From a virus (taxonomy: Duplodnaviria; Heunggongvirae; Uroviricota; Caudoviricetes): a DNA stretch of 41,470 nt. The DNA lies in the IMG/VR virus record IMGVR_UViG_2690316195_000001, positions 1-41,470 of that record, one strand, 5' to 3'. Position 1 is the first letter of the stretch; every line of letters begins with the position of its first letter. This document shows, one piece after another, positions 1 to 41,470 of the stretch. Position numbers and translations under genes: made by a program. The notes beneath the pieces are model-generated. The model was not told the DNA's origin, searched no databases, and was given only the letters and a program-made list of their open reading frames with translations.

Positions 1-1248
1 ATGGCACTGAATATTCCATTCAGAAATGCGTACTATCGTTTTGCATCCAGTTACTCATTTCTCTTTTTTATTTCCTGGTCGCTGTGGTGGTCGTTATACG
101 CTATTTGGCTGAAAGGACATCTAGGGTTGACAGGGACGGAATTAGGTACACTTTATTCGGTCAACCAGTTTACCAGCATTCTATTTATGATGTTCTACGG
201 CATCGTTCAGGATAAACTCGGTCTGAAGAAACCGCTCATCTGGTGTATGAGTTTCATCCTGGTCTTGACCGGACCGTTTATGATTTACGTTTATGAACCG
301 TTACTGCAAAGCAATTTTTCTGTAGGTCTAATTCTGGGGGCGCTATTTTTTGGCTTGGGGTATCTGGCGGGATGCGGTTTGCTTGATAGCTTCACCGAAA
401 AAATGGCGCGAAATTTTCATTTCGAATATGGAACAGCGCGCGCCTGGGGATCTTTTGGCTATGCTATTGGCGCGTTCTTTGCCGGCATATTTTTTAGTAT
501 CAGTCCCCATATCAACTTCTGGTTGGTCTCGCTATTTGGCGCTGTATTTATGATGATCAACATGCGTTTTAAAGATAAGGATCACCAGTGCGTAGCGGCA
601 GATGCGGGAGGGGTAAAAAAAGAGGATTTTATCGCAGTTTTCAAGGATCGAAACTTCTGGGTTTTCGTCATATTTATTGTGGGGACGTGGTCTTTCTATA
701 ACATTTTTGATCAACAACTTTTTCCTGTCTTTTATTCAGGTTTATTCGAATCACACGATGTAGGAACGCGCCTGTATGGTTATCTCAACTCATTCCAGGT
801 GGTACTCGAAGCGCTGTGCATGGCGATTATTCCTTTCTTTGTGAATCGGGTAGGGCCAAAAAATGCATTACTTATCGGAGTTGTGATTATGGCGTTGCGT
901 ATCCTTTCCTGCGCGCTGTTCGTTAACCCCTGGATTATTTCATTAGTGAAGTTGTTACATGCCATTGAGGTTCCACTTTGTGTCATATCCGTCTTCAAAT
1001 ACAGCGTGGCAAACTTTGATAAGCGCCTGTCGTCGACGATCTTTCTGATTGGTTTTCAAATTGCCAGTTCGCTTGGGATTGTGCTGCTTTCAACGCCGAC
1101 TGGGATACTCTTTGACCACGCAGGCTACCAGACAGTTTTCTTCGCAATTTCGGGTATTGTCTGCCTGATGTTGCTATTTGGCATTTTCTTCTTGAGTAAA
1201 AAACGCGAGCAAATAGTTATGGAAACGCCTGTACCTTCAGCAATATAG
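1..1248 (+). CDS. cscB: Sucrose:H+ symporter, LacY-family MFS permease (host gene, outside prophage)
   Basis: 415-aa ORF from the track, hydrophobic multi-TM composition, clear LacY-family character; N-terminus MALNIPFRNAYYRF matches CscB as I recall it. Internal ORFs on other frames treated as spurious. Confidence 0.8.
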   Translation: MALNIPFRNAYYRFASSYSFLFFISWSLWWSLYAIWLKGHLGLTGTELGTLYSVNQFTSILFMMFYGIVQDKLGLKKPLIWCMSFILVLTGPFMIYVYEPLLQSNFSVGLILGALFFGLGYLAGCGLLDSFTEKMARNFHFEYGTARAWGSFGYAIGAFFAGIFFSISPHINFWLVSLFGAVFMMINMRFKDKDHQCVAADAGGVKKEDFIAVFKDRNFWVFVIFIVGTWSFYNIFDQQLFPVFYSGLFESHDVGTRLYGYLNSFQVVLEALCMAIIPFFVNRVGPKNALLIGVVIMALRILSCALFVNPWIISLVKLLHAIEVPLCVISVFKYSVANFDKRLSSTIFLIGFQIASSLGIVLLSTPTGILFDHAGYQTVFFAISGIVCLMLLFGIFFLSKKREQIVMETPVPSAI

Positions 1249-4863: not shown

Positions 4864-5160
4864 TCAGTCATTACTGATAGCGCCATAACGTGAGCGGTAA
4901 TTACGCAGGCGCGGGTCGATATATTCAGGGAAGTGGGTATATGTGGCTTTACGGAATGGTCGGATTGATGTCTGGTAAATTCGCTCGCGTTCTTCTTTCT
5001 CTGCAAGCCATATACAGTGGCGAAATTCCTTTTCCTCTTTCGTTTCCTGCGGTAGTGACATTATCCGATCGTAGTTTTTTCTGAATTTATCCAGCACCTC
5101 CGATACGGAATTGCCGGAACAGCGGCGCGGGTCATCCGCACCATACAGAGGCGCTGGCAT
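4864..5160 (-). CDS. Hypothetical phage protein (98 aa)
   Basis: Track ORF with AAGGA RBS, tight operon spacing. Confidence 0.5.
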   Translation of the reverse strand: MPAPLYGADDPRRCSGNSVSEVLDKFRKNYDRIMSLPQETKEEKEFRHCIWLAEKEERERIYQTSIRPFRKATYTHFPEYIDPRLRNYRSRYGAISND

Positions 5161-5183
5161 GATTAAATCCTTATTTTTCTGAA

Positions 5184-5567
5184 TCAGAATGGGATGGAAT
5201 CGTCGTATACAGGAGTGTTCTGCTGGTTACTACTTTGCTGCTGCGGGCCATTTCCTGAAGCTGCAAATCCAATCTTTGCATTCAGTAATTCAAGAGTGAT
5301 TGATTGACCATTTTGCCCCTGATAAACATCAACCCTGATGTTTTCTCCGGTAATTTCTACAATGCCACCTTCAACAAGAACACTACGGTAGTAATCCGCT
5401 TGCTCTCCCGGCTTGGCAAATACAACGGCGCTGTAGTTTGTCCATTCTTTCTTTTTTGTCTGGCGATCGTAATACTGAACGCCAGCACGGATGTTGAATC
5501 CGATATTTTCCCCGGCCTGAAACTCTCTTGCGGGCTTGTTTAGTCTTACAGTAATAGAATGTGCCAT
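5184..5567 (-). CDS. Single-stranded DNA-binding protein-like, with SSB-type acidic C-terminal tip
   Basis: 127 aa from MAHSITV; ends ...VYDDSIPF resembling the E. coli SSB tip DDDIPF; immediately downstream of erf with a 1-nt TAATG start/stop overlap. Confidence 0.65.
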   Translation of the reverse strand: MAHSITVRLNKPAREFQAGENIGFNIRAGVQYYDRQTKKKEWTNYSAVVFAKPGEQADYYRSVLVEGGIVEITGENIRVDVYQGQNGQSITLELLNAKIGFAASGNGPQQQSSNQQNTPVYDDSIPF

Positions 5568-6172
5568 TAAGCAGCAGCTCCTTCTAATTCGTCTCGTCTG
5601 ATGTTGTAAACGTCCTGCGCTTTGTGCTGCTCCGGTGTGCCTTCGAGCATCTTCCACGCTTTGGCGAACGCCTGTTTAAGCTCTTCTACGGTGTTTTTCT
5701 GCAATGCTGCGTCAGTGAATGCTTTTAGAACCTGTTCAGGTGTAGGTGATGGTTTTGATTGCTTTGCTGCTGCGTTCTGCTGATGTTTATGCTCGTCTGT
5801 ATCTGCATCTTTCGCATCATCAATGCCGAACAAACCATTGAGGCAATACTTGCGTGCATAAGAGCTTGTAGCTCCCGTAACTTGTGCAGAATCCATTCCT
5901 TTCTTGCTTTCTTCCTCTCGTGCAAGAGCGGTTGCTGTATGACTGTTTTCGCCATCAGTAATAGTTGCCGTTGCTTTCACGTAATACCGATCACCAATCA
6001 ACACAACTTCATCGCTGATTGATAAAAACAGACCATTCAGTAACGGCTTAACGCCTTCAAGAATATCTTCGCAGCTTCTGTATTTATATTTGCCGAATGA
6101 GTTGTACTGATTCTTTGGCGCGTTCAGATTCTCCTGAATAGCTGCCAGTCTTGCGTAAAATTCTTTGCTCAT
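5567..6172 (-). CDS. erf: Erf-family single-strand annealing recombinase
   Basis: MSKEFYARLAAIQENLNAPKNQYNSFGKYKYRSCEDILEG... matches P22 Erf as recalled; start trimmed from the track ORF to the MSKEFY ATG. Confidence 0.9.
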   Translation of the reverse strand: MSKEFYARLAAIQENLNAPKNQYNSFGKYKYRSCEDILEGVKPLLNGLFLSISDEVVLIGDRYYVKATATITDGENSHTATALAREEESKKGMDSAQVTGATSSYARKYCLNGLFGIDDAKDADTDEHKHQQNAAAKQSKPSPTPEQVLKAFTDAALQKNTVEELKQAFAKAWKMLEGTPEQHKAQDVYNIRRDELEGAAA

Positions 6173-6273
6173 ATGATTGTTCTCAGAATGGACACGGCCC
6201 AAGGAAATAACGCTGATTTAATACTTCGACTCGGGACAAGTTAAGGCATACCCGCATTCCTTCGCGGTCGCCA

Positions 6274-32261: not shown

Positions 32262-34655
32262 ATGGCTAATTACCGTGATTTGTTAGAGCAGGCTGGCGCA
32301 CGTTACGGTGTGCCAGAAGGGTTGATGACTGCACTGGGTGCCAAGGAGTCTTCTTACAACCCTGCCGCAGTAAGCTCCGCCGGGGCTGTAGGATTGACTC
32401 AGGTCATGCCTGGGACATGGCGTGATATGGGTTATACCGATGAGCAAATGCAAAACCCCGAATATCAGGCTGACGCTGGCGCGCGCTATCTGGCAAAGAT
32501 GTACCAGCAGTTTGGTAACTGGCGTGACGCTCTTCAGGCTTATCACGACGGTCCCGGCAACGTTATGAAGGCAAAGCGTGGTGAATATACGCCAGGACCT
32601 GAAGGCCGCGGTTACGTTGATGATCGCTTTGCTCAATGGGCGGGTGACCCGGTGACAGACTCAACAGTCGAACAGCGCGCCACCTCTGCAAAGGTACATC
32701 CTCAGCAAGACCCTAACAACCCGTTTGCACAACTGGAAGCACAGTCATCCGAACAAGTATCGGCATCAGGCGTGCAGTCAGACCCAAATAATCCATTTGC
32801 TCAGATTGAGCAGCAGGCAGCCAGTCAGCAGCCACCCCAACCCGTAAGTTCTGTCGCACCGAAACCTGTTCAGCAGCAAGGCGGAATAATGTCTGACCTT
32901 GGTAATGGACTTGCTGAAACCGGGCGCGGCTTACTACAGGCAGGAATCAACGTAGCGAACATACCTGCTGAACTCACTGATGCTGTAACAAGCGCGGCGG
33001 CTTGGGCTGGCGGTAAACTCGGCATTGGCGATGGTACATATCAACCAGCACCACGAGTAACAACGCAGGGATTAGAGCAGGACTTTGGCCTTCAGCAAGG
33101 CGCGCTGACTCCACAAACGACAGAGGGAAGGGTATTTGCTGAAGCATTACCTTACCTCACTCCTGCTGGCGTTGAGAGAGCGGCAACACAGGCACCAACA
33201 CTTGCTGGTCGAATTGCTCAGGGGGCAACTCGCCTTCTAGCAGAAAACGCAGTTGGATCACTTGCTGCAAACAGTGCGAAAGATGATGCGGAAGCACTCG
33301 CCACCGATTTAGGCGTTGGTGTGCTGGCTGGCGGTACTATTAACGCTGCCGGACGTGGATTAGGTGCTGCTTATCGTGGTGTTCGTGGTTCGATAGCACC
33401 AGAAGCTCAACAGGCTATCAGGTTTGCAGAGCGTGAAGGAGTTCCTCTGCACACCACAGACCTGTTACAGCCTACTTCCCGCGTCGGGAAAATGGCGCAG
33501 ACTACAGCAGAAAATATCCCTCTGGCTGGCACAAGCGGAATGAGAGCAACGCAACAGGAAGCGAGAAGCCAGTTGGTGCAGAGATTTGCTGATAAATTCG
33601 GTGAGTATGATCCATCTGTTGTTATTGACAGCCTTAAAGCGAAAACATCAGGAATTCGTCGTGCCGCCGGTAATCGACTGGAGCAGGTTCAGAATGCTAT
33701 GGCTGGAGTAAACATTCAGCCTGCGCGAGCAATTCAGCAGATTGATACAGAAATATCTAATCTGCAGAAGCTTGGTAAGGTAGCTGATAACGAGACAATT
33801 TCAAAACTTCAGTCATATCGTGATGAGCTTGTTCGCAATGCTGGCCCTGATGGTCCGGTTAATCTGGATTTGAAGCAATTAAGCGATCTGCGCAGCCAGT
33901 TCAGAATGGACGTGAAGGGGGAGCGACCAGTGTTACCAAACCGTTCCGATGCCGCCATTCAACGTGTTTACAAGGCGATGACCGACGATATCAATGGTGC
34001 CATTGGTCAGAATCTTGGCAACGATACTCTCCGTAAATATCAGCAGGCCAATGCCGTCTACGCTGACGAAGCGGCGAAACTAAAGAATACCAGGCTGAAG
34101 AATGTTCTCATGAAAGGAGACCTGACGCCGGAAGTTGTCAACAACATGCTATTCAGCAAGAACAAATCGGAAATTAAGACGCTGTATAACTCAGTTGGTC
34201 GTGTTGGCAGGGCGCAAATGCGCAATGGCATCATTGGAAAGGCGATGGAGAAATCTGGCGGATCCCCTGACCAGTTCCTTCGGCAGCTTAACATCCTGCA
34301 AAACCAGACTGGCATCACATTTAAGGGGCAGGACGCTGCTTATCTGAAAGGATTAAAAAACTACCTGCAATCCACGCAGCAGGCTGCAAAAGCGGCAGTA
34401 ACAACACCCACAGGGCAGCAAACTATCCCGTTCATTATTGGGTATGGGACGGCAATGAACCCGGCGACAACTGGCGCAGCGGTAAGCTACGGACTTCTTA
34501 CTCGCGCCTATGAGAGCGAACCATTCAGAAATGCAATGCTCCGAATGGCAAACACCCCACGCGGATCAACAGCCTTTGAGAAAGCAATGCAGCAGGCACA
34601 AAAGGCAATTAACGCTCTGACGCAGGGGGCTAAGTCTGATGCGTTGTCAGAATAG
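32262..34655 (+). CDS. Ejection protein (gp16 position) with N-terminal lytic transglycosylase domain
   Basis: 797 aa; N-terminus carries an SLT-like motif (ALGAKESSYNPAAVSSAGAVGLTQVMPGTWRD...YHDGPGNV). Confidence 0.75.
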   Translation: MANYRDLLEQAGARYGVPEGLMTALGAKESSYNPAAVSSAGAVGLTQVMPGTWRDMGYTDEQMQNPEYQADAGARYLAKMYQQFGNWRDALQAYHDGPGNVMKAKRGEYTPGPEGRGYVDDRFAQWAGDPVTDSTVEQRATSAKVHPQQDPNNPFAQLEAQSSEQVSASGVQSDPNNPFAQIEQQAASQQPPQPVSSVAPKPVQQQGGIMSDLGNGLAETGRGLLQAGINVANIPAELTDAVTSAAAWAGGKLGIGDGTYQPAPRVTTQGLEQDFGLQQGALTPQTTEGRVFAEALPYLTPAGVERAATQAPTLAGRIAQGATRLLAENAVGSLAANSAKDDAEALATDLGVGVLAGGTINAAGRGLGAAYRGVRGSIAPEAQQAIRFAEREGVPLHTTDLLQPTSRVGKMAQTTAENIPLAGTSGMRATQQEARSQLVQRFADKFGEYDPSVVIDSLKAKTSGIRRAAGNRLEQVQNAMAGVNIQPARAIQQIDTEISNLQKLGKVADNETISKLQSYRDELVRNAGPDGPVNLDLKQLSDLRSQFRMDVKGERPVLPNRSDAAIQRVYKAMTDDINGAIGQNLGNDTLRKYQQANAVYADEAAKLKNTRLKNVLMKGDLTPEVVNNMLFSKNKSEIKTLYNSVGRVGRAQMRNGIIGKAMEKSGGSPDQFLRQLNILQNQTGITFKGQDAAYLKGLKNYLQSTQQAAKAAVTTPTGQQTIPFIIGYGTAMNPATTGAAVSYGLLTRAYESEPFRNAMLRMANTPRGSTAFEKAMQQAQKAINALTQGAKSDALSE

Positions 34656-34745: not shown

Positions 34746-35231
34746 TTATCTTATGTTACTGCTACTGTTGCATGTGACTGTATTTCCAAACCCTGAATTG
34801 CAGTTTGTGTAAGTGTCAACGCGTGTTGGATAGGGTTGAGTTATAACAGGCTGTCTCGCTTTTTGCTCGATCGCTTGCATTGTGTTTACAGCCTGATAAT
34901 TCAATAAAGCCTGCTGGAATGCTTGGCTTTGTGCTATTTGTTGGGCTTGTTCTTGGCTTTGTAATTGAACATAAAGATTCTGAAGCTCAAGTCTTGCCTG
35001 TGCGTCACTTATCTTGCCTTCATCGACACCTTGCCCGAGCATCTTTGCAGCAAGGACATACAGCTTAGGTGTTGGTGCTGATGCCATGCGTGAGTCGTTC
35101 TTCACACTGGCATCAAGGCAATTAGCCATATCGCTAAGCTTTTGATAGCGTTGTTCGCAACTTGCTTGATAGTCACTTACTTTTGCGCATCCAACCAGTA
35201 GAAGCGGGATAATTAACAGTGATTTTTTCAT
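34746..35231 (-). CDS. Lipoprotein of unknown function (moron on opposite strand)
   Basis: Start trimmed to MKKSLLIIPLLLVGC (lipobox LVGC) with AAGGAGAG RBS; Gln-rich mature region with several Cys. Confidence 0.7.
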   Translation of the reverse strand: MKKSLLIIPLLLVGCAKVSDYQASCEQRYQKLSDMANCLDASVKNDSRMASAPTPKLYVLAAKMLGQGVDEGKISDAQARLELQNLYVQLQSQEQAQQIAQSQAFQQALLNYQAVNTMQAIEQKARQPVITQPYPTRVDTYTNCNSGFGNTVTCNSSSNIR

Positions 35232-35568: not shown

Positions 35569-35689
35569 CCTTGATGCCTCACCAGTTGGGTGGAATGGCA
35601 TCGTAACCTACTGGATAAATACTCAATAGTACCATTTCGGTATGCAATCACATCATGGTTGCATCATATCATTCGTCTGGAGCAATGAA

Positions 35690-37582
35690 ATGTCAGATAT
35701 CACCGCAAATGTTGTGGTAAGCATGCCTTCGCAACTCTTCACTATGGCTCGTTCTTTTAAAGCCGTAGCCAATGGCAAAATTTATATCGGTAAAATTGAC
35801 ACTGACCCGGTAAATCCTGAAAACCAGATTCAGGTTTATGTGGAGAACGAAGACGGTTCTCACGTTCCTGTTTCGCAACCAATCATCATTAACACTGCTG
35901 GATATCCGGTATATAACGGACAGATTGCCAAGTTCGTAACTGTGCAAGGCCATTCTATGGCTGTTTATGATGCATATGGTGCGCAGCAGTTCTATTTTCC
36001 TAATGTGCTGAAGTATGACCCCGATCAGGCATTGCCAGCTTTCATAAGTAAATTGGCAGCAGTTGATGGTGAATCTTATATTGTTGGGGCGACTTATGAA
36101 CAAATAAGGACATCTAATGTTTCTGGAACGCAAATAAAATGCGTAGGAAGAGAACATAATAAGGATGGAGGGGAAGGATGGTTCTTCCTTGACTCAGATG
36201 ATACAACGACTGAAGATGATGATGGAACAGTATTAATTGATGCAGTCGGCCGTCGCTGGAAGCGTTCATATAATGGCGCAAAAATGGCTTCATGGTTTGG
36301 CGTGAAATCTGGAACAGAGGTTTCACCTGCTATTCAAAATATGCTTAATACTGGTACTGGAGGTATAGAAATTAAGGATGGGCAATACAATTCTACCACA
36401 AAAGTTACAGTAAACCACTCTGGATCAAATTTTCCTGTAATGGGAAGAAAAAGTAAGAGGTTTGACTTTACTGGCGAGTCAATGGTGAATACTGCATTTA
36501 ACACCAATGGCAATGATTTCCTTGAGTATATAGGTAATTCAGAAGGGGACGGGCAGGGTGTGCATAGCGGTATGAAGTTATCTAATTTCACTGTTTATGG
36601 TACTGGTAACTCTGGAGTTGGATTACGGTTAAGCAATGCTGCATACCTAAAAGTTGAGGATGTGTATCTCGTAAGAAATAATTCAGGCTTGGTAATAACA
36701 GGAGTTCTTACCAGTGAATTTAACAGAATTAACTCTCAATATAATAACTACGGTATGTACATCAACGGAGGAACAAACAGCACAGTTAACGCACTAAAAA
36801 TAAATGGTGTTTTTAGTGGTAACTCAAAATTTGGAATTGAAGGAGATATAGGCACAAGGATAAATCTAAACAACTGCAATTTTGAGGGTAATGGAACTCA
36901 GGGAGATACTGGTACAGGAGGTGTTTACCTAAGAGCTAAAGAACCAATGTCTGTGATAAATATATCTGATTGCTATTTTGAAGCAAATCAAGGAATATCA
37001 GACATTCAGGTTAATAACATGACATCTTCACCTCTTATAGTAAATATCAATTCATGCACATTTATAAGGGGGAATTCATCAGGCGGTTATTGTACATATG
37101 TGATTAGAGCGTTAAGCACTGGTGGTGGGCGTGTCATTGTTAACCTTAATGGGTGTCATTTTTTTACTCAAACAGCTTTTGGATACATACCTAGCGCTTC
37201 GAGACCATTTATCTCAGGAGGTACTTATATGACTTTAAATGGAATGGATACCTGTCATTTTAGTGAGGACATAAGCAAGTCTATATCTACGGTAAGCACT
37301 TCATCGGTGATTTCTGGAAGTGTAACATCGGCAGGTGTTGCGTATGCACCATCTTATTTAACAATAGCAAAACAATCCACAGGGGTATATTCAATTGATA
37401 GCACTTTCTCATATGGACCAACAGTAAATGACTTTCAGGTAGTAGCAAGTACTAAAACTAACGGGTTTAAGGTGCTATATGCAGGCAAGCCAAGCACAAC
37501 AGCCATCAGGATCGTGACCACTGATAACTCTGGCAACTTGGCTGATGCAGATTTTGACTTTATGATAACAAGAGTTAGATAA
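35690..37582 (+). CDS. Tailspike with P22-type head-binding domain and divergent beta-helix receptor-binding domain
   Basis: N-terminal about 125 aa ([43 protein letters not shown]...VLKYDPDQ) match the P22 gp9 head-binding domain; remainder is a repetitive, AT-rich beta-helix-like region. Confidence 0.9.
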
Positions 37583-37586
37583 AATT

Positions 37587-37619
37587 AAGGGCGAATACCG
37601 CCCTTAGCTTATTTTTTTA
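37587..37619. terminator. Bidirectional rho-independent terminator between convergent tailspike and gtrC
   Basis: Stem AAGGGCG/CGCCCTT, loop AATAC, with A-rich 5' flank and T-rich 3' flank. Confidence 0.6.
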
Positions 37620-38880
37620 TTATATCTAAATACCATCCTGAGTGTGGTAGTGTGTGCATTTTCACGCGGCTCCCTGGCTCTGCTGTCTCATATTTGTATG
37701 CCTCTTGCACCCATCCATTGTTAGGTCTTTTTTCAATTTTAAAGCTAACAATTCCAGATAGAATTACTGAGCAAGCCACTATGCAAAATGCTAATTTCTT
37801 TACATGCCCATGAAGCATATTAGTGAATGCTAGAAGTATCGACACCCAAAATATGGCCGGTATGACAAAATACCTTTGTCCTGGTCCTATTTGTAAGAGA
37901 GGCCATTGAGGCTGGTCTCTTGCAATGACTGGTCTGGCAAGGGCAAATCCCAACATAAGATAAGGAAAAATCACTAATGCTTTTTCTTTCCAGTTCCCTT
38001 TTAATAGCACGTATGCACTAATTGATAGGCCACATAAAGAAACAAAGTAATTTAAAGCATGCAGATCCCACACCTTTCTTGATAAGCTCTCGCTAAGAAA
38101 TGAGCCAAGGAATACTCTGGAGGATAGTATATCCATCAAAATACCTACACCTGCACCAAGTGGCGCGGTCGGTCGAGAGCCTTTAGAAGAGAGAAGTATG
38201 GCGGCTATCTGAATTAAACACACTATTGCGAAAGTTATGTAGAATAAGTTTAAGTTTCTGAATGCATTTTTTACTGCATTGATAGGAGTTTTTAGAATAT
38301 CTCCGTTTGTAATTCTTAGTAAGGCAACAGGAGCTAAAAAAACAATGAATGGCCCACTTAGGCCAGCCACAACCATCACCAAAAAGTCGTGTGCTTTCCA
38401 ATATAATCCATCAGTTCTATCTGCTACCAGCACCAAGAATAGCCATATTGCCATATACCAATGAGTGTTGGTTACGTTGGCATGCACCTCTTCAAGGTGT
38501 GGCATAGTTAAAATGAAGATTGAAATTAATATTCTTGGATATATAGAAACGCTTTTGAATCTATTAGATAGTATGAAGGTTATTATTACGCATCTTATCG
38601 ATAATGCAATAACAGTGAAAATAAAAGGTGATAGATATAATGGGAACAGCATGGAGAATGTCGCAACAAGTTTTGAAATTGTCTGATAGTAACCATCCTG
38701 TACTAAAATTATAGATTTCAGAGGGCCCAATGCATAAGCCTGACCAAGCCATACCCGTCCATCCTCTGCCCATAGTTGAGGGTGTGAAATAATATCAGGA
38801 CGACGCATGCAGAATATGATGAAACATATAACAAATATAATCAAAAACAAAAATATTCTGTTTGTGTTTATGCTATTCAT
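37609..38880 (-). CDS. gtrC: GtrC-like serotype-specific O-antigen glucosyltransferase (polytopic membrane protein)
   Basis: 423 aa, about 10 TM segments, AT-rich; ATGA overlap with gtrB; third gene of a gtrABC-type operon. Confidence 0.65.
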
Positions 38881-39800
38881 GATTGTTCCTTTTTCTTTAA
38901 AATATATCGTGGTCTGCATTTTACTTCCACATAAATTCTTCCTATATATTCACCAAGTACACCGATACCGATAAGTTGAATACCTCCAAGGAAAAGAATG
39001 GAGACCAATAACGATGGATATCCACGAACAGCATTGCCGAATACAAGCGTGTCAAAAATCATCCATGCACCATAAAGAAAAGCAATTCCAGCAACGAACA
39101 ATCCGATATAAGTCCACATGCGCAGCGGGAATGTTGAGAAACTGGTTATCCCCTCAAGGGCAAGGTTCCACAGTTTCCATCCGTTAAATTTAGTGCTGCC
39201 TGCGACTCGTTCTGCTCGTGCATATTCAACGACATCGGTGCGTCCGCCAACCCAGCTCAGCACGCCCTTCATAAACAGGTTGCGCTCTGGCATGAGCTTA
39301 ATGTTTTCCACCACCTCGCGAGACATCAAGCGGAAATCACCAACGTTTTCCTCGATCTGCGGGTTGCTAATTTTGTTATGCAGCTTATAGAACCACTCGG
39401 CGGTTTTCCTCTTCAGTCTGCCATCCGTTGATCGGTCAGATCGTTTAGCAAGCACCATATCGGCACCTGCTTGCCACTTTTCAATCAGATGAGGAATAAC
39501 CTCAATCGGGTCTTGCAGGTCAACATCAATAGGAATAACAGCATCGCCTGTTGCATGGTCTAACCCTGCGAATAATGCTGGTTCTTTACCAAAGTTTCGT
39601 GTAAATGACAGCGGAACAACTAGAGGATCTGAAACAGCCAGAGCATTAATAATTGACTCCGTAGCGTCTTTGCTGCCGTCATTTATGAAAACAATTTCCA
39701 CTTCGTATGGCTTCAACTCTTCGAATTCACGTACCGTTTTATAAAAAATTGGTATTGCTTCTTCTTCATTGAAGACAGGAACTACAAGAGATATCTTCAT
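38877..39800 (-). CDS. gtrB: GtrB bactoprenol glucosyltransferase (GT2 family)
   Basis: 307 aa; GT2 motifs ([19 protein letters not shown]-x-D region) plus two C-terminal TM helices. Confidence 0.9.
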
Positions 39801-40159
39801 TTCGCATCCCTAAAGACAATGAACTTTGAATAGACGAAACCGCACACAAGACTGATGGCTGAGAAGGTGATGAGAGTGACAATTGGAGGAAGTGAACATC
39901 TATCAGCAGCCCATCCAACAGTTGCACTCAGTGTTCCCATGAACCCGACATATAACATGTAGCGCATCGTTGTAGTTGATGCTTTGAATGTGAATTTTGC
40001 ATTCGCGAAGAAGCTAAAACTCACAGCCACAACAAAACCTGCGAAGTTTGCAAGAGCTTGGTTTGTATGCGCGACATAGATACATACACCAAAAACCACC
40101 CAGTGTATAAGTGTGTTCAGCACACCAATCGAGGTGTACTTTGCAAATAGCTTTAACAT
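39797..40159 (-). CDS. gtrA: GtrA flippase (GtrA/DPMS2-family small membrane protein)
   Basis: 120 aa with four TM segments; ATGA overlap with gtrB. Confidence 0.85.
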
Positions 40160-40312
40160 TTCTTCTATCAGCTAATAATCAAAGGCATGAAGTCTATCAT
40201 CCAAGTCTCAATCGATCGATGACTTGCTGTGGTTGATGAGACAAAACTGATGCACACAAAGCTTTGCACTGGATTGCTAGACTTTGCGCTCTTCGATAGT
40301 GGTTAAGGTGGA

Positions 40313-41470
40313 TCACTCCACCTTTTCATCAAGCCAGTCCGCCCACCATTGCATCATTTCCCTGCGTTTATCGAGATACTGCGCATGGTTGTAAATCCCG
40401 CGCACAGAACCGCCGTTGGCATGTGCCAGTTGCACTTCAATAGCATCAGCAGGCCATTCGTGCTCGTTCATAATCGTGCTGAATTCATGCCTGAATCCGT
40501 GACCGCTTTCCAGACCCTCATAGCCGATTTGTTTGATCACAAGCAATACCGCGTTCTCGCAGATTGGCTTTTTCTTATCGTTGCGGCCGGCAAAAACAAA
40601 CTCTGATACTGGTTTGGTGATAGAGCTTAGCGTAGTGAGAAGTTCAACCACCTGGTCTGACATAGGAACCACATGAATTTTGCGTCCCTTCATCACACTG
40701 GCGTTGATAGTGATAATCCTGTTTTCAAAATCGACGTTATTCCATAGCATAGAACGAAGCTCTTTCGTTCTTAGGGCTGTATAGCGTAAAACCTTGGTGG
40801 CAATGAGCGATACGATACTTCCTGAAAATGTTGCAAGTGCTTTGTTGAATGCCGGGATCTGGTCGGCAGGTAAAAATGGGAAGTTCTTCTTGCGGTATCC
40901 CTTCATGGCGTCAGCAAGGTCAGGTGCCGGGTTATATTTAGCCCTACCAGTGACAATAGCGTAACGGAAAACCTCGCCGCATCTTCTGCGGGCTTTGTTG
41001 GCTCGCTCCATTGCACCGCGATCTTCAAATCTGCGGATTACTTCCAGCAGTTGCATCGGCTCAATATCCTGAATTTCAAGGCCGCCGATGATAGGTAAAA
41101 TGTCGTCATCAAACATTTTTGCAAGTTCAGTCGCATACCCTACTGACCAGACTTGCTTCTTGTGCTCGTACCATTCCTTGTAAATCGCACTAAAGGAATT
41201 GTTGTTAGACGAAGCCTTTTTCGCCTTTACCGGATCGATGCCAACCGAGATGTCTTTCCTCGCAGTCCATGCCTTATCCCTTGCCTCCTGCAAAGTCATT
41301 AGCGGATATTTTCCTACGGTCAGGATTTTCTCCTTACCGTCAATCTTGTAGCGAAGCTGCCATACCTTTTTCCCTGACACAGGGACATAAAGGTACAGGC
41401 CATTACCATCGAGAAGGCGGTATGGTTTTTCTTTCGGCTTTGCTGCTTCAATCTGCTTAACGGTGAGCAT
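40313..41470 (-). CDS. int: Tyrosine integrase, P4/CP4-57 type
   Basis: 385 aa; N-terminal arm-binding DUF4102-like region (KPYRLLDGNGLYLYV...WQLRYK) and C-terminal catalytic domain (R...HGFRHEF...Y); start codon is the last codon of the window. Confidence 0.9.
   Translation of the reverse strand: MLTVKQIEAAKPKEKPYRLLDGNGLYLYVPVSGKKVWQLRYKIDGKEKILTVGKYPLMTLQEARDKAWTARKDISVGIDPVKAKKASSNNNSFSAIYKEWYEHKKQVWSVGYATELAKMFDDDILPIIGGLEIQDIEPMQLLEVIRRFEDRGAMERANKARRRCGEVFRYAIVTGRAKYNPAPDLADAMKGYRKKNFPFLPADQIPAFNKALATFSGSIVSLIATKVLRYTALRTKELRSMLWNNVDFENRIITINASVMKGRKIHVVPMSDQVVELLTTLSSITKPVSEFVFAGRNDKKKPICENAVLLVIKQIGYEGLESGHGFRHEFSTIMNEHEWPADAIEVQLAHANGGSVRGIYNHAQYLDKRREMMQWWADWLDEKVE

Follow-up and report, generated by a model that had tools for sequence, protein, structure and literature searches.

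In the window, by which we mean the whole 41,470-nt stretch of DNA that was analyzed, we identified a host-recognition and serotype-conversion module at positions 35690–40159, with all four of its genes (a tailspike gene followed by gtrC, gtrB and gtrA) present and intact. The prophage, which is integrated in E. coli, is a temperate podophage of the HK620-like (P22-like) kind, and the receptor-binding domain (RBD) of its tailspike together with gtrCBA makes up a specificity cassette of about 4.2 kb that moves between phage backbones. The explanation that we favor, with a probability of roughly 0.75 for the whole of it, combines an O-antigen-recognizing spike, serotype conversion by gtrABC, self-exclusion and mobility of the cassette. 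In enterobacteria, O-serotype and the host range of phages are determined jointly by prophage gtr operons and tailspikes, and the module in the window is a well-known phage module in a version without earlier characterization: it does not alter the picture of how systems of this kind operate, and what is added here is an uncharacterized GtrC subtype and spike RBD type.

The closest sequenced backbone is that of the coliphage HK620, a P22-like podophage (97% identity over 58% of the first 25 kb). The window contains an IntS-type tyrosine integrase gene (40313–41470, minus strand; Pfam integrase domains), and an orthologue of this integrase lies beside tRNA-Arg/yfdC in the related loci L001, L002, L003, L005 and L006 (argW integration). 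The gene identities given in the initial annotation, including a convergent gtrABC next to the spike, are borne out by the coordinates and by domain and homologue matches, and so is its description of the RBD and gtrC as AT-rich (38.4% and 37.8% GC, respectively, vs 47.6% in the remainder of the window). The GC content is about 43% for gtrA/gtrB and 43.6% for the head-binding domain of the spike, and, in contrast to the AT-rich RBD and gtrC, 51.8% for the upstream injection-protein gene.

The tailspike ORF (35690–37582, plus strand) encodes 630 aa; we set its start at 35690 (MSDITANV), as in all homologues, whereas the mechanical ORF begins at 35642. Its head-binding (particle-attachment) domain (residues 1–114; 35690–36031, plus strand) is recognized by Pfam Head_binding (PF09008; residues 1–113, E=7e-67, full profile coverage), and the N-terminus matches Sf6 gp14 (PDB 7sg7; residues 1–124, E=3e-65) as well as the P22 spike. 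The domain is 92–99% identical in other P22-like prophages. Past residue 124 or so, no sequence match of the tailspike to the P22, Sf6 or HK620 spikes was found. The receptor-binding part (36032–37582, plus strand) comprises a neck (residues ~115–225), a right-handed beta-helix (~226–515) and a predicted C-terminal beta domain (~534–630). An AF2 model of the RBD as a monomer (pLDDT 88) has a predicted fold of the beta-helix depolymerase type, with the right-handed parallel beta-helix of P22-like tailspike RBDs. Among its conserved acidic residues, E399 is invariant and E431 and D438 are at least 90% conserved, which makes the three of them candidate catalytic residues for a putative hydrolytic activity of the spike.

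According to precomputed hits, the RBD belongs to a widespread Pfam family (PF27114), and it is 30–40% identical to the spikes of Shigella flexneri phages (Sf11 gp13, Sf101 and the SfX type). The initial annotation had described a P22-type N-terminus joined to an unrelated C-terminal region; the swap away from the P22 RBD is confirmed, but the RBD is not an orphan, being homologous to the Sf11/Sf101/SfX-type spikes. For gp13 of the Shigella siphophage Sf11, the homology extends over the beta-helix and the C-terminal domain (30% identity; E=3e-42 by phmmer for residues 224–629) and includes the conserved motifs EGNGTQGD and YFEAN..SD, whereas gp13 has another kind of N-terminal adaptor, a helical bundle docking on a siphophage distal tail protein. 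We considered PDB 9occ as a solved structure for the RBD and rejected it: the sequence matches, but only residues 4–59 of gp13 are modelled. No experimental structure covers the homologous part of this RBD type.

Downstream of the spike, gtrA-gtrB-gtrC (40159–37609, minus strand) is a translationally coupled operon convergent with the tailspike gene, with ATGA stop/start overlaps at both the gtrA/gtrB and the gtrB/gtrC junction. The spike and gtrC are separated by a gap of 26 nt, which is filled by a hairpin that reads as a bidirectional intrinsic terminator (37585–37607, both strands; 5 G-C pairs in a stem of 9 bp, T-runs on either strand). The intergenic region between int and gtrA (40160–40312, minus strand) is presumed to be the gtr promoter region; a scan of it for consensus sigma-70 sequences gave no promoter match. 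It contains one GATC site (at 40214), and a second one (40311–40314) straddles the int boundary. In phase-variable gtr operons of the P22 type, the sequence preceding gtrA has two pairs of GATC sites, four in all, with which OxyR half-sites overlap (PMC2909390), and such a Dam/OxyR switch is ruled out here on the GATC content of the int-gtrA region.

GtrA (120 aa; 39797–40159, minus strand), a small membrane protein and proposed UndP-glucose flippase, belongs to the GtrA/DPMS family (PF04138, E=1e-13). GtrB (307 aa; 38877–39800, minus strand), a bactoprenol (undecaprenyl-phosphate) glucosyltransferase, has a GT2 domain (PF00535, E=3e-31) and two C-terminal hydrophobic segments (~231–253 and ~264–286). 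Because both are 92% identical to the experimentally characterized proteins of phage SfV, the transferred sugar is likely to be glucose.

The putative serotype-specific glucosyltransferase GtrC is encoded at 37609–38880 (minus strand); we used the 423-aa version backed by homologue alignments rather than the 436-aa ORF that reaches 38919 and overlaps gtrB. No Pfam or NCBIfam model matches GtrC, and its PHROG assignment is 19534 ('glucosyltransferase', E=2e-69). It is 38.5% identical to S. flexneri GtrV and 34.5% to GtrX over 94% of its length, and in a 7-sequence alignment it aligns with both end to end, with 64 invariant columns. The AF2 model (pLDDT 94) suggests a GT-C fold, with Foldseek matches at probability 1.0 to AglB, ALG9, STT3, PglB, DPY19 and AftA, and a hydropathy scan flagged ten 19-residue windows, some of them overlapping, in line with the polytopic membrane glycosyltransferase typical of GtrC. 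In the WAEDG loop motif, W37 and D40 do not vary across 56 homologues, and the conservation of A38, E39 and G41 is 90% or more; the loop-2 acidic pair in the first periplasmic loop is kept (E39/D40, corresponding to E42/D43 of GtrV). GtrV (417 aa vs 423 aa) is the best characterized homologue and shares further motifs with GtrC, but its identity to GtrC is too low for a transfer of acceptor specificity. Residue D380 of GtrV has been proposed to contact or stabilize the acceptor (PMC3259042); the residue aligned to it is Asn (RPNNGW) in GtrC of the window and in the aligned protein P0002, which is compatible with a different acceptor.

Apart from the members of its own 90%-identity cluster, GtrC has no relative closer than 50% identity, and the nearest characterized protein is 38.5% identical; GtrC is an uncharacterized subtype that clearly falls in the GtrV/GtrX family. 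It is divergent, as had been claimed in the initial annotation, but it is no orphan. The initial annotation also stated that the exact modification is not predictable from sequence, which is correct: homology to the rhamnose-glucosylating GtrV and GtrX gives only a lead on it. A blastn search with gtrC against 5,426 complete RefSeq E. coli genomes gave no match, no record covering at least 80% of the module was found in the search of complete genomes, and when species-representative genomes, IMG/VR and metagenome contigs were scanned for GtrC, the only relatives obtained were at most 50% identical.

At about 98.6% identity, the cassette is present in no fewer than 8 contigs from E. coli, which differ in prophage backbone or insertion site; carrier assemblies include GCA_020541625.1, GCA_047529625.1, GCA_013772175.1 and GCA_002549135.1. 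In addition, positions 36036–40199 of the window (RBD, terminator and gtrC-gtrB-gtrA) match the locus L023 in one colinear blastn stretch (4166 bp, 81% nucleotide identity) that begins immediately after the part encoding the head-binding domain and extends to a point slightly upstream of gtrA. L023 has a non-P22 backbone of a Tail_spike_N-type phage; its GtrC is 98% identical to the Enterobacter hormaechei protein P0120, and the contig probably comes from that species. The four ORFs are all complete wherever a contig covers them (9 related loci), and all four genes are under purifying selection, the dN/dS values between the window and L023 being 0.055 for gtrC, 0.016 for gtrB, 0.034 for gtrA and 0.036 for the RBD. 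A gtrC pseudogene, which had been named as evidence that would speak against the proposed conversion, was not what we found: the window and the 9 related loci (the 8 E. coli contigs and L023) all have an intact gtrC, with the above dN/dS against the Enterobacter-type copy. Synonymous divergence from L023 is saturated for the RBD, gtrA and gtrB (dS 1.8–2.9) whereas gtrC is far closer (0.5), and the pairing of RBD and GtrC has therefore been kept or re-formed.

In the loci sampled, the type of GtrC goes with that of the distal spike half. Where the GtrC is the same, the distal bins of the spike are 79–88% identical; in loci with an unrelated GtrC of 507 aa, the distal bins are 51–79% identical and the proximal part is 97–100% identical. 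No cross-pairing of RBD and GtrC types was seen in the 12 loci that carry the window-type GtrC. In L001, the replaced block is contiguous, from the 3' end of the spike (position 37002 of the window) to the gtrB boundary (38892). The pairing is not obligatory, because relatives of GtrC (42–50% identity) adjoin unrelated tail fibres or spikes. The same convergent layout is seen with Mu-like fibres in SfV, with P2-like fibre-assembly genes and with an unrelated Tail_spike_N spike. A general pairing of GtrC relatives with related spikes was accordingly rejected (the relatives at 47–50% identity adjoin unrelated fibres or spikes), and there are also relatives of the spike, at 61% identity, without any gtr operon. 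The co-inheritance of the distal spike half and the GtrC type fits self-exclusion; physical linkage explains it equally well.

Several known systems resemble the module. SfX-type prophages (L038, L039 and L044) have the same layout, with a spike of P22-type head-binding domain and beta-helix convergent with gtrX-gtrB-gtrA and int beyond. Their spike is 43% identical overall to that of the window (the head-binding domain being nearly identical and the beta-helix ~36–40% identical) and lacks the extra neck of ~110 residues (115–225); their GtrX, which is 100% identical to L05001, is 34.5–35% identical to GtrC of the window, and the host of SfX is S. flexneri serotype Y rather than E. coli. SfV differs from the window phage in having a Mu-like tail with tail fibres instead of a spike. 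The Salmonella phages P22 and epsilon34 share the architecture (tailspike, then convergent gtrABC) and the logic of an O-antigen spike combined with lysogenic conversion (PMC2629481), and the head-binding domain is shared as well.

Under the favored explanation, the tailspike would attach to the virion by its conserved head-binding domain, and the swapped-in beta-helix domain would bind, and probably cleave, the O-antigen of the host. The convergent gtrABC would be expressed from the prophage, with GtrB making undecaprenyl-phosphate-glucose, GtrA serving as the proposed flippase for it, and GtrC attaching the glucose to the O-unit as a side branch, at a single specific position. The modified O-antigen would then be a poorer substrate for the spike family of the window, and the lysogen would resist superinfection and change its serotype. 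We infer that O-antigen is the substrate of both the spike and GtrC, and glucosylation would block re-adsorption by the same spike (self-exclusion). Observations that speak against this explanation are the Asn in place of GtrV D380, the lack of a promoter match upstream of gtrA in the consensus scan, the spike relatives without gtr, the GtrC relatives beside unrelated tail fibres or spikes, and the PHROG label of the spike, a hint at another glycan target.

The alternative that deserves most weight, although we regard it as unlikely, is adjacency without functional matching: gtr would be a moron at the int-proximal end beside the last late gene (the spike), GtrC would benefit the host (immune evasion, exclusion of other phages) with no particular effect on the spike, and the co-inheritance of the distal spike and gtrC would reflect physical linkage only. 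The occurrence of the convergent layout with the unrelated receptor-binding proteins of SfV, P2-like and Tail_spike_N phages, the spike relatives without gtr and the single contiguous replaced block in L001, as linkage predicts, all agree with it, and a high mobility of gtr clusters among types of phage has been reported (PMC2629481). It accounts less well for the same RBD and GtrC types being together in two lineages between which synonymous divergence is saturated for RBD, gtrA and gtrB and amounts to a dS of 0.5 for gtrC, for the distant SfX cassette, in which a homologous spike is paired with a homologous GtrC, and for the lack of cross-pairing in the 12 loci with window-type GtrC.

That the spike targets another glycan (colanic acid, capsule or another exopolysaccharide), independently of the gtr operon, is considerably less probable. 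This reading would suit the best PHROG match of the spike, family 8280 ('tail spike protein with colonic acid degradation activity'), and the sequence match of residues 7–219 (head-binding domain and neck) to the exopolysaccharide-modifying WceF of Pantoea (PDB 6tgf). However, the label attached to PHROG 8280 is itself propagated and untested, and the match is limited to residues 1–446; the SfX-type and Sf101 spikes come from O-antigen-converting phages, and O-antigen use is characteristic of P22-like phages that have this head-binding domain. Moreover, Sf11 gp13, the closest characterized beta-helix relative, requires full-length LPS for infection (PMC12724387). Least probable of all, to the point of being negligible, is that gtrC and/or the spike are non-functional remnants of decaying cargo. 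A DUF6056-type gtrC is indeed split into two ORFs in STEC379 (L002) and truncated spike fragments are present among cluster members, but the ORFs are of full length in the window and complete wherever they are covered in the 9 related loci, dN/dS is 0.02–0.06, the catalytic-loop motifs are conserved and both AF2 models are confident.

A stronger version of the favored explanation, which we put forward tentatively and consider doubtful, is that the distal spike half and gtrC are co-adapted to each other in a 'lock and lock-changer' cassette on which selection acts as a whole, and which travels from podophages to phages of another morphotype or back, as well as between Escherichia and Enterobacter. 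If this were true, the Escherichia and Enterobacter carrier strains would share an O-antigen epitope (as a speculation, the shared substrate could be the mannan O-antigens of the E. coli O77-group and E. cloacae O9–O11), and RBD-GtrC pairs could predict which glucosylation defeats which spike. The presence of the cassette on two phage chassis, one in E. coli and one in the contig attributed to Enterobacter hormaechei, amounts to a natural experiment on the co-evolution of spike and enzyme, and the spike-GtrC pair could serve phage host-range engineering or in-silico serotype prediction.

The sibling strain VTB97584v, which has an 82%-identical spike and the unrelated 507-aa GtrC, carries a rhamnose-containing O-antigen cluster of the O150 family, a weak lead to the O-antigen target of the window phage. 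Another P22-like temperate E. coli phage at argW, Kapi1, uses O-antigen as its receptor and alters the LPS of its host; unlike the window phage, it has no recognizable gtr genes and a different spike RBD (bioRxiv 10.1101/2021.04.09.439263).

All four genes at the spike-gtr end of the window are intact and lie where the initial annotation had placed them. The tailspike gene (35690-37582, plus strand) encodes 630 aa; we set its start at 35690 (mechanical ORF: 35642) since MSDITANV opens every homologue. The 26-nt gap between spike and gtrC holds an intrinsic terminator for both strands (37585-37607; a hairpin with a 9-bp stem), followed on the minus strand by gtrC (37609-38880), gtrB (38877-39800) and gtrA (39797-40159), with an ATGA stop/start overlap at each of the gtrA/gtrB and gtrB/gtrC junctions. 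Beyond gtrA lies an IntS-type integrase gene (40313-41470), and in related E. coli loci tRNA-Arg argW and yfdC adjoin the integrase. The AT-richness claimed for the receptor-binding domain (RBD) of the spike and for gtrC is real: GC content is 38.4% and 37.8%, respectively, versus 47.6% in the remaining window. The backbone is HK620-like (97% identity across 58% of the window's first 25 kb). At the other end, a 415-aa ORF (1-1248, plus strand; PHROG 17800, unknown function) starts with the window; as the window opens and closes exactly at gene ATGs (that of this ORF and that of int at 41470, without an att site), the prophage was apparently cut back to the nearest gene edges. GATC is strongly depleted across the whole window (90 sites versus 163 +/- 12 expected from dinucleotide-preserving shuffles).

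Residues 1-113 of the spike match the full length of Pfam Head_binding (E=7e-67) and, in PDB, the N-termini of the Sf6 and P22 spikes, as expected for the proposed P22-type N-terminus. The RBD had been called unrelated, which holds for the P22, Sf6 and HK620 spikes (nothing similar past residue ~124) but does not make it an orphan, as it falls in the PF27114 family (precomputed hits). Prophages of E. coli and Enterobacter widely carry members of this family, which sit behind at least three different N-terminal adaptors (PF09008, PF18668 and PF03906). Its characterised or named relatives include gp13 of Shigella siphophage Sf11 (30% identity, E=3e-42), Sf101 (36%) and the SfX-type spike; Sf11 infection requires full-length LPS (PMC12724387). 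PDB entry 9occ models only residues 4-59 of gp13, so the homologous part is without an experimental structure. The AlphaFold2 model (pLDDT 88, from a 48-sequence alignment) has a small neck domain, a right-handed beta-helix and a C-terminal beta domain; a beta-helix had been anticipated in the initial annotation. We propose E399 (invariant in 48 homologues), E431 and D438 (conserved in at least 90%) as candidate catalytic residues; Sf11 gp13 and the SfX-type spike retain all three. Public databases already list the window spike (WP_057106996.1).

GtrA and GtrB each share 92% identity with experimentally studied SfV proteins, and therefore the sugar donor is almost certainly undecaprenyl-phosphate-glucose. 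GtrC has no counterpart among Pfam and NCBIfam models; its PHROG match is 19534 ('glucosyltransferase'), and it shares 38.5% identity with GtrV and 34.5% with GtrX, covering 94% of its length. Its AF2 model (pLDDT 94) matches AglB, ALG9, STT3, PglB, DPY19 and AftA (probability 1.0 each, TM-scores ~0.4), all of them GT-C enzymes with polyprenyl-linked donors. The WAEDG motif in the first loop, aligned to GtrV E42/D43, is invariant or nearly so across 56 homologues. GtrV D380 has been proposed to position the acceptor (PMC3259042); the aligned residue is Asn in the window GtrC, which is compatible with a different acceptor. A P22-type Dam/OxyR phase switch, as described in PMC2909390, is ruled out upstream of gtrA by the GATC content (one internal site and one at the int boundary).

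The best-supported reading of the locus is the classical one, an O-antigen spike paired with O-antigen glucosylation. The spike would recognise the host O-antigen as its substrate and probably cleave it, and in the periplasm GtrB, GtrA and GtrC would attach glucose to it as a side branch; the branch would change the serotype and is expected to lower re-adsorption. The present data establish the gene identities, the predicted folds, the selection on the genes and the mobility of the cassette, whereas the substrate, the site of the glucose, catalysis by the spike and self-exclusion are inferences. Three weak leads, none decisive, point to rhamnose in the backbone of the target O-antigen: it is the sugar that GtrV and GtrX glucosylate (PMC3259042), the spike relatives belong to S. 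flexneri phages, and E. coli VTB97584v, which has a sibling spike, carries an O150-family O-antigen cluster including rmlBDAC.

The same architecture is found in P22, epsilon34 and SfX, and gtr clusters were already reported to move between phage types (PMC2629481), so what is new here is limited to an uncharacterised GtrC subtype and a spike RBD subtype in one portable cassette. SfX-type prophages have a homologous spike and GtrX in the same convergent layout; their GtrX is 100% identical to L05001 and 35% to the window GtrC.

The spike-gtrABC block is ~98.6% identical in at least eight E. coli contigs with different prophage backbones (one at another insertion site, adjoining dacD), and each of the four ORFs is complete in every contig that spans it. 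The E. coli GtrC proteins P0121 and P0123 (AMB53504.1 and EFM1898236.1) are 100% identical to the window GtrC where aligned; the gene was found in none of 5,426 complete RefSeq E. coli genomes, and the nearest GtrC relative beyond its own cluster has 50% identity. In locus L004 (GCA_047529625.1), the cassette-bearing prophage adjoins dacD/sbmC, not argW; a Peptidase_S24 gene takes the place of int beside a gtrA of only 84% identity, so the cassette has a mosaic boundary on its gtrA side.

Locus L023, the most telling relative, has a single colinear 4166-bp match (81% nucleotide identity) to window 36036-40199, beginning directly past the head-binding domain and stopping just upstream of gtrA. 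The phage backbone of L023 encodes a tail protein of 825 aa and is of a type shared with the Enterobacter hormaechei locus L020; the L023 spike has a Tail_spike_N adaptor, and the L023 GtrC is 98% identical to an E. hormaechei protein. Between window and L023, dN/dS is 0.055 for gtrC, 0.016 for gtrB, 0.034 for gtrA and 0.036 for the RBD, so all four are under strong purifying selection. The most similar segment of the cassette by nucleotides is gtrC (89%; L023 5130-6401), with dS of 0.5 versus 1.8-2.9, near synonymous saturation, for RBD, gtrA and gtrB, which suggests either a later exchange of gtrC alone or an unusual synonymous constraint.

Among the loci sampled, GtrC type goes with the distal spike half rather than with the proximal part. 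L023, with the same 423-aa GtrC (94%), has a spike of 23% identity to ours over residues 1-115 (other adaptor), 78-84% to residue 360 and 79-88% in three bins over 361-630. The three loci with an unrelated 507-509-aa GtrC (L001, L013 and L014) keep 96-100% over 1-360 and drop to 51-79% in the distal bins, and two without a gtr operon (L016 and L025) have 98-99% over 1-225, 57-59% over 226-360 and 38-57% distally. Selection might act on distal spike and gtrC as one unit, in more than one phage morphotype and genus, a reading we consider rather doubtful. The block replaced in L001 (VTB97584v) is one contiguous stretch (window 37002-38892), as plain linkage predicts, and GtrC relatives of 42-50% identity adjoin unrelated fibres or spikes, which counts against an obligatory pairing.

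In L001 (4091-7532) and L026, the sibling spike is identical over the first ~360 residues and then diverged, and it is paired with a putative GtrC of 507 aa, unrelated to ours, for which a weak PHROG match is the sole family assignment. Beside a further spike type, L002 (E. coli STEC379; 4925-6200) has a DUF6056-type gtrC annotated as two ORFs (639 and 597 bp), seemingly a conversion gene in decay.

Upstream of the spike, the last injection protein (32262-34655, plus strand; 797 aa) is an SLT lytic-transglycosylase domain (residues 7-110) fused to a P22 gp16-like body, also seen in L015; in other related prophages it has 612-665 aa, with only the gp16-like family recorded. Between this gene and mnt lies a 161-aa ORF (34746-35231, minus strand; 173 aa if read from 35267) with a signal peptide and an LLVGC lipobox, its C-terminal half being rich in Q. 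Its PHROG match is to 6067 (E=2e-110), a family of unknown function, and a role as a superinfection-exclusion lipoprotein is conceivable. Five related loci (L003, L004, L006, L015 and L025) have a 161-aa gene without Pfam match at the same position.
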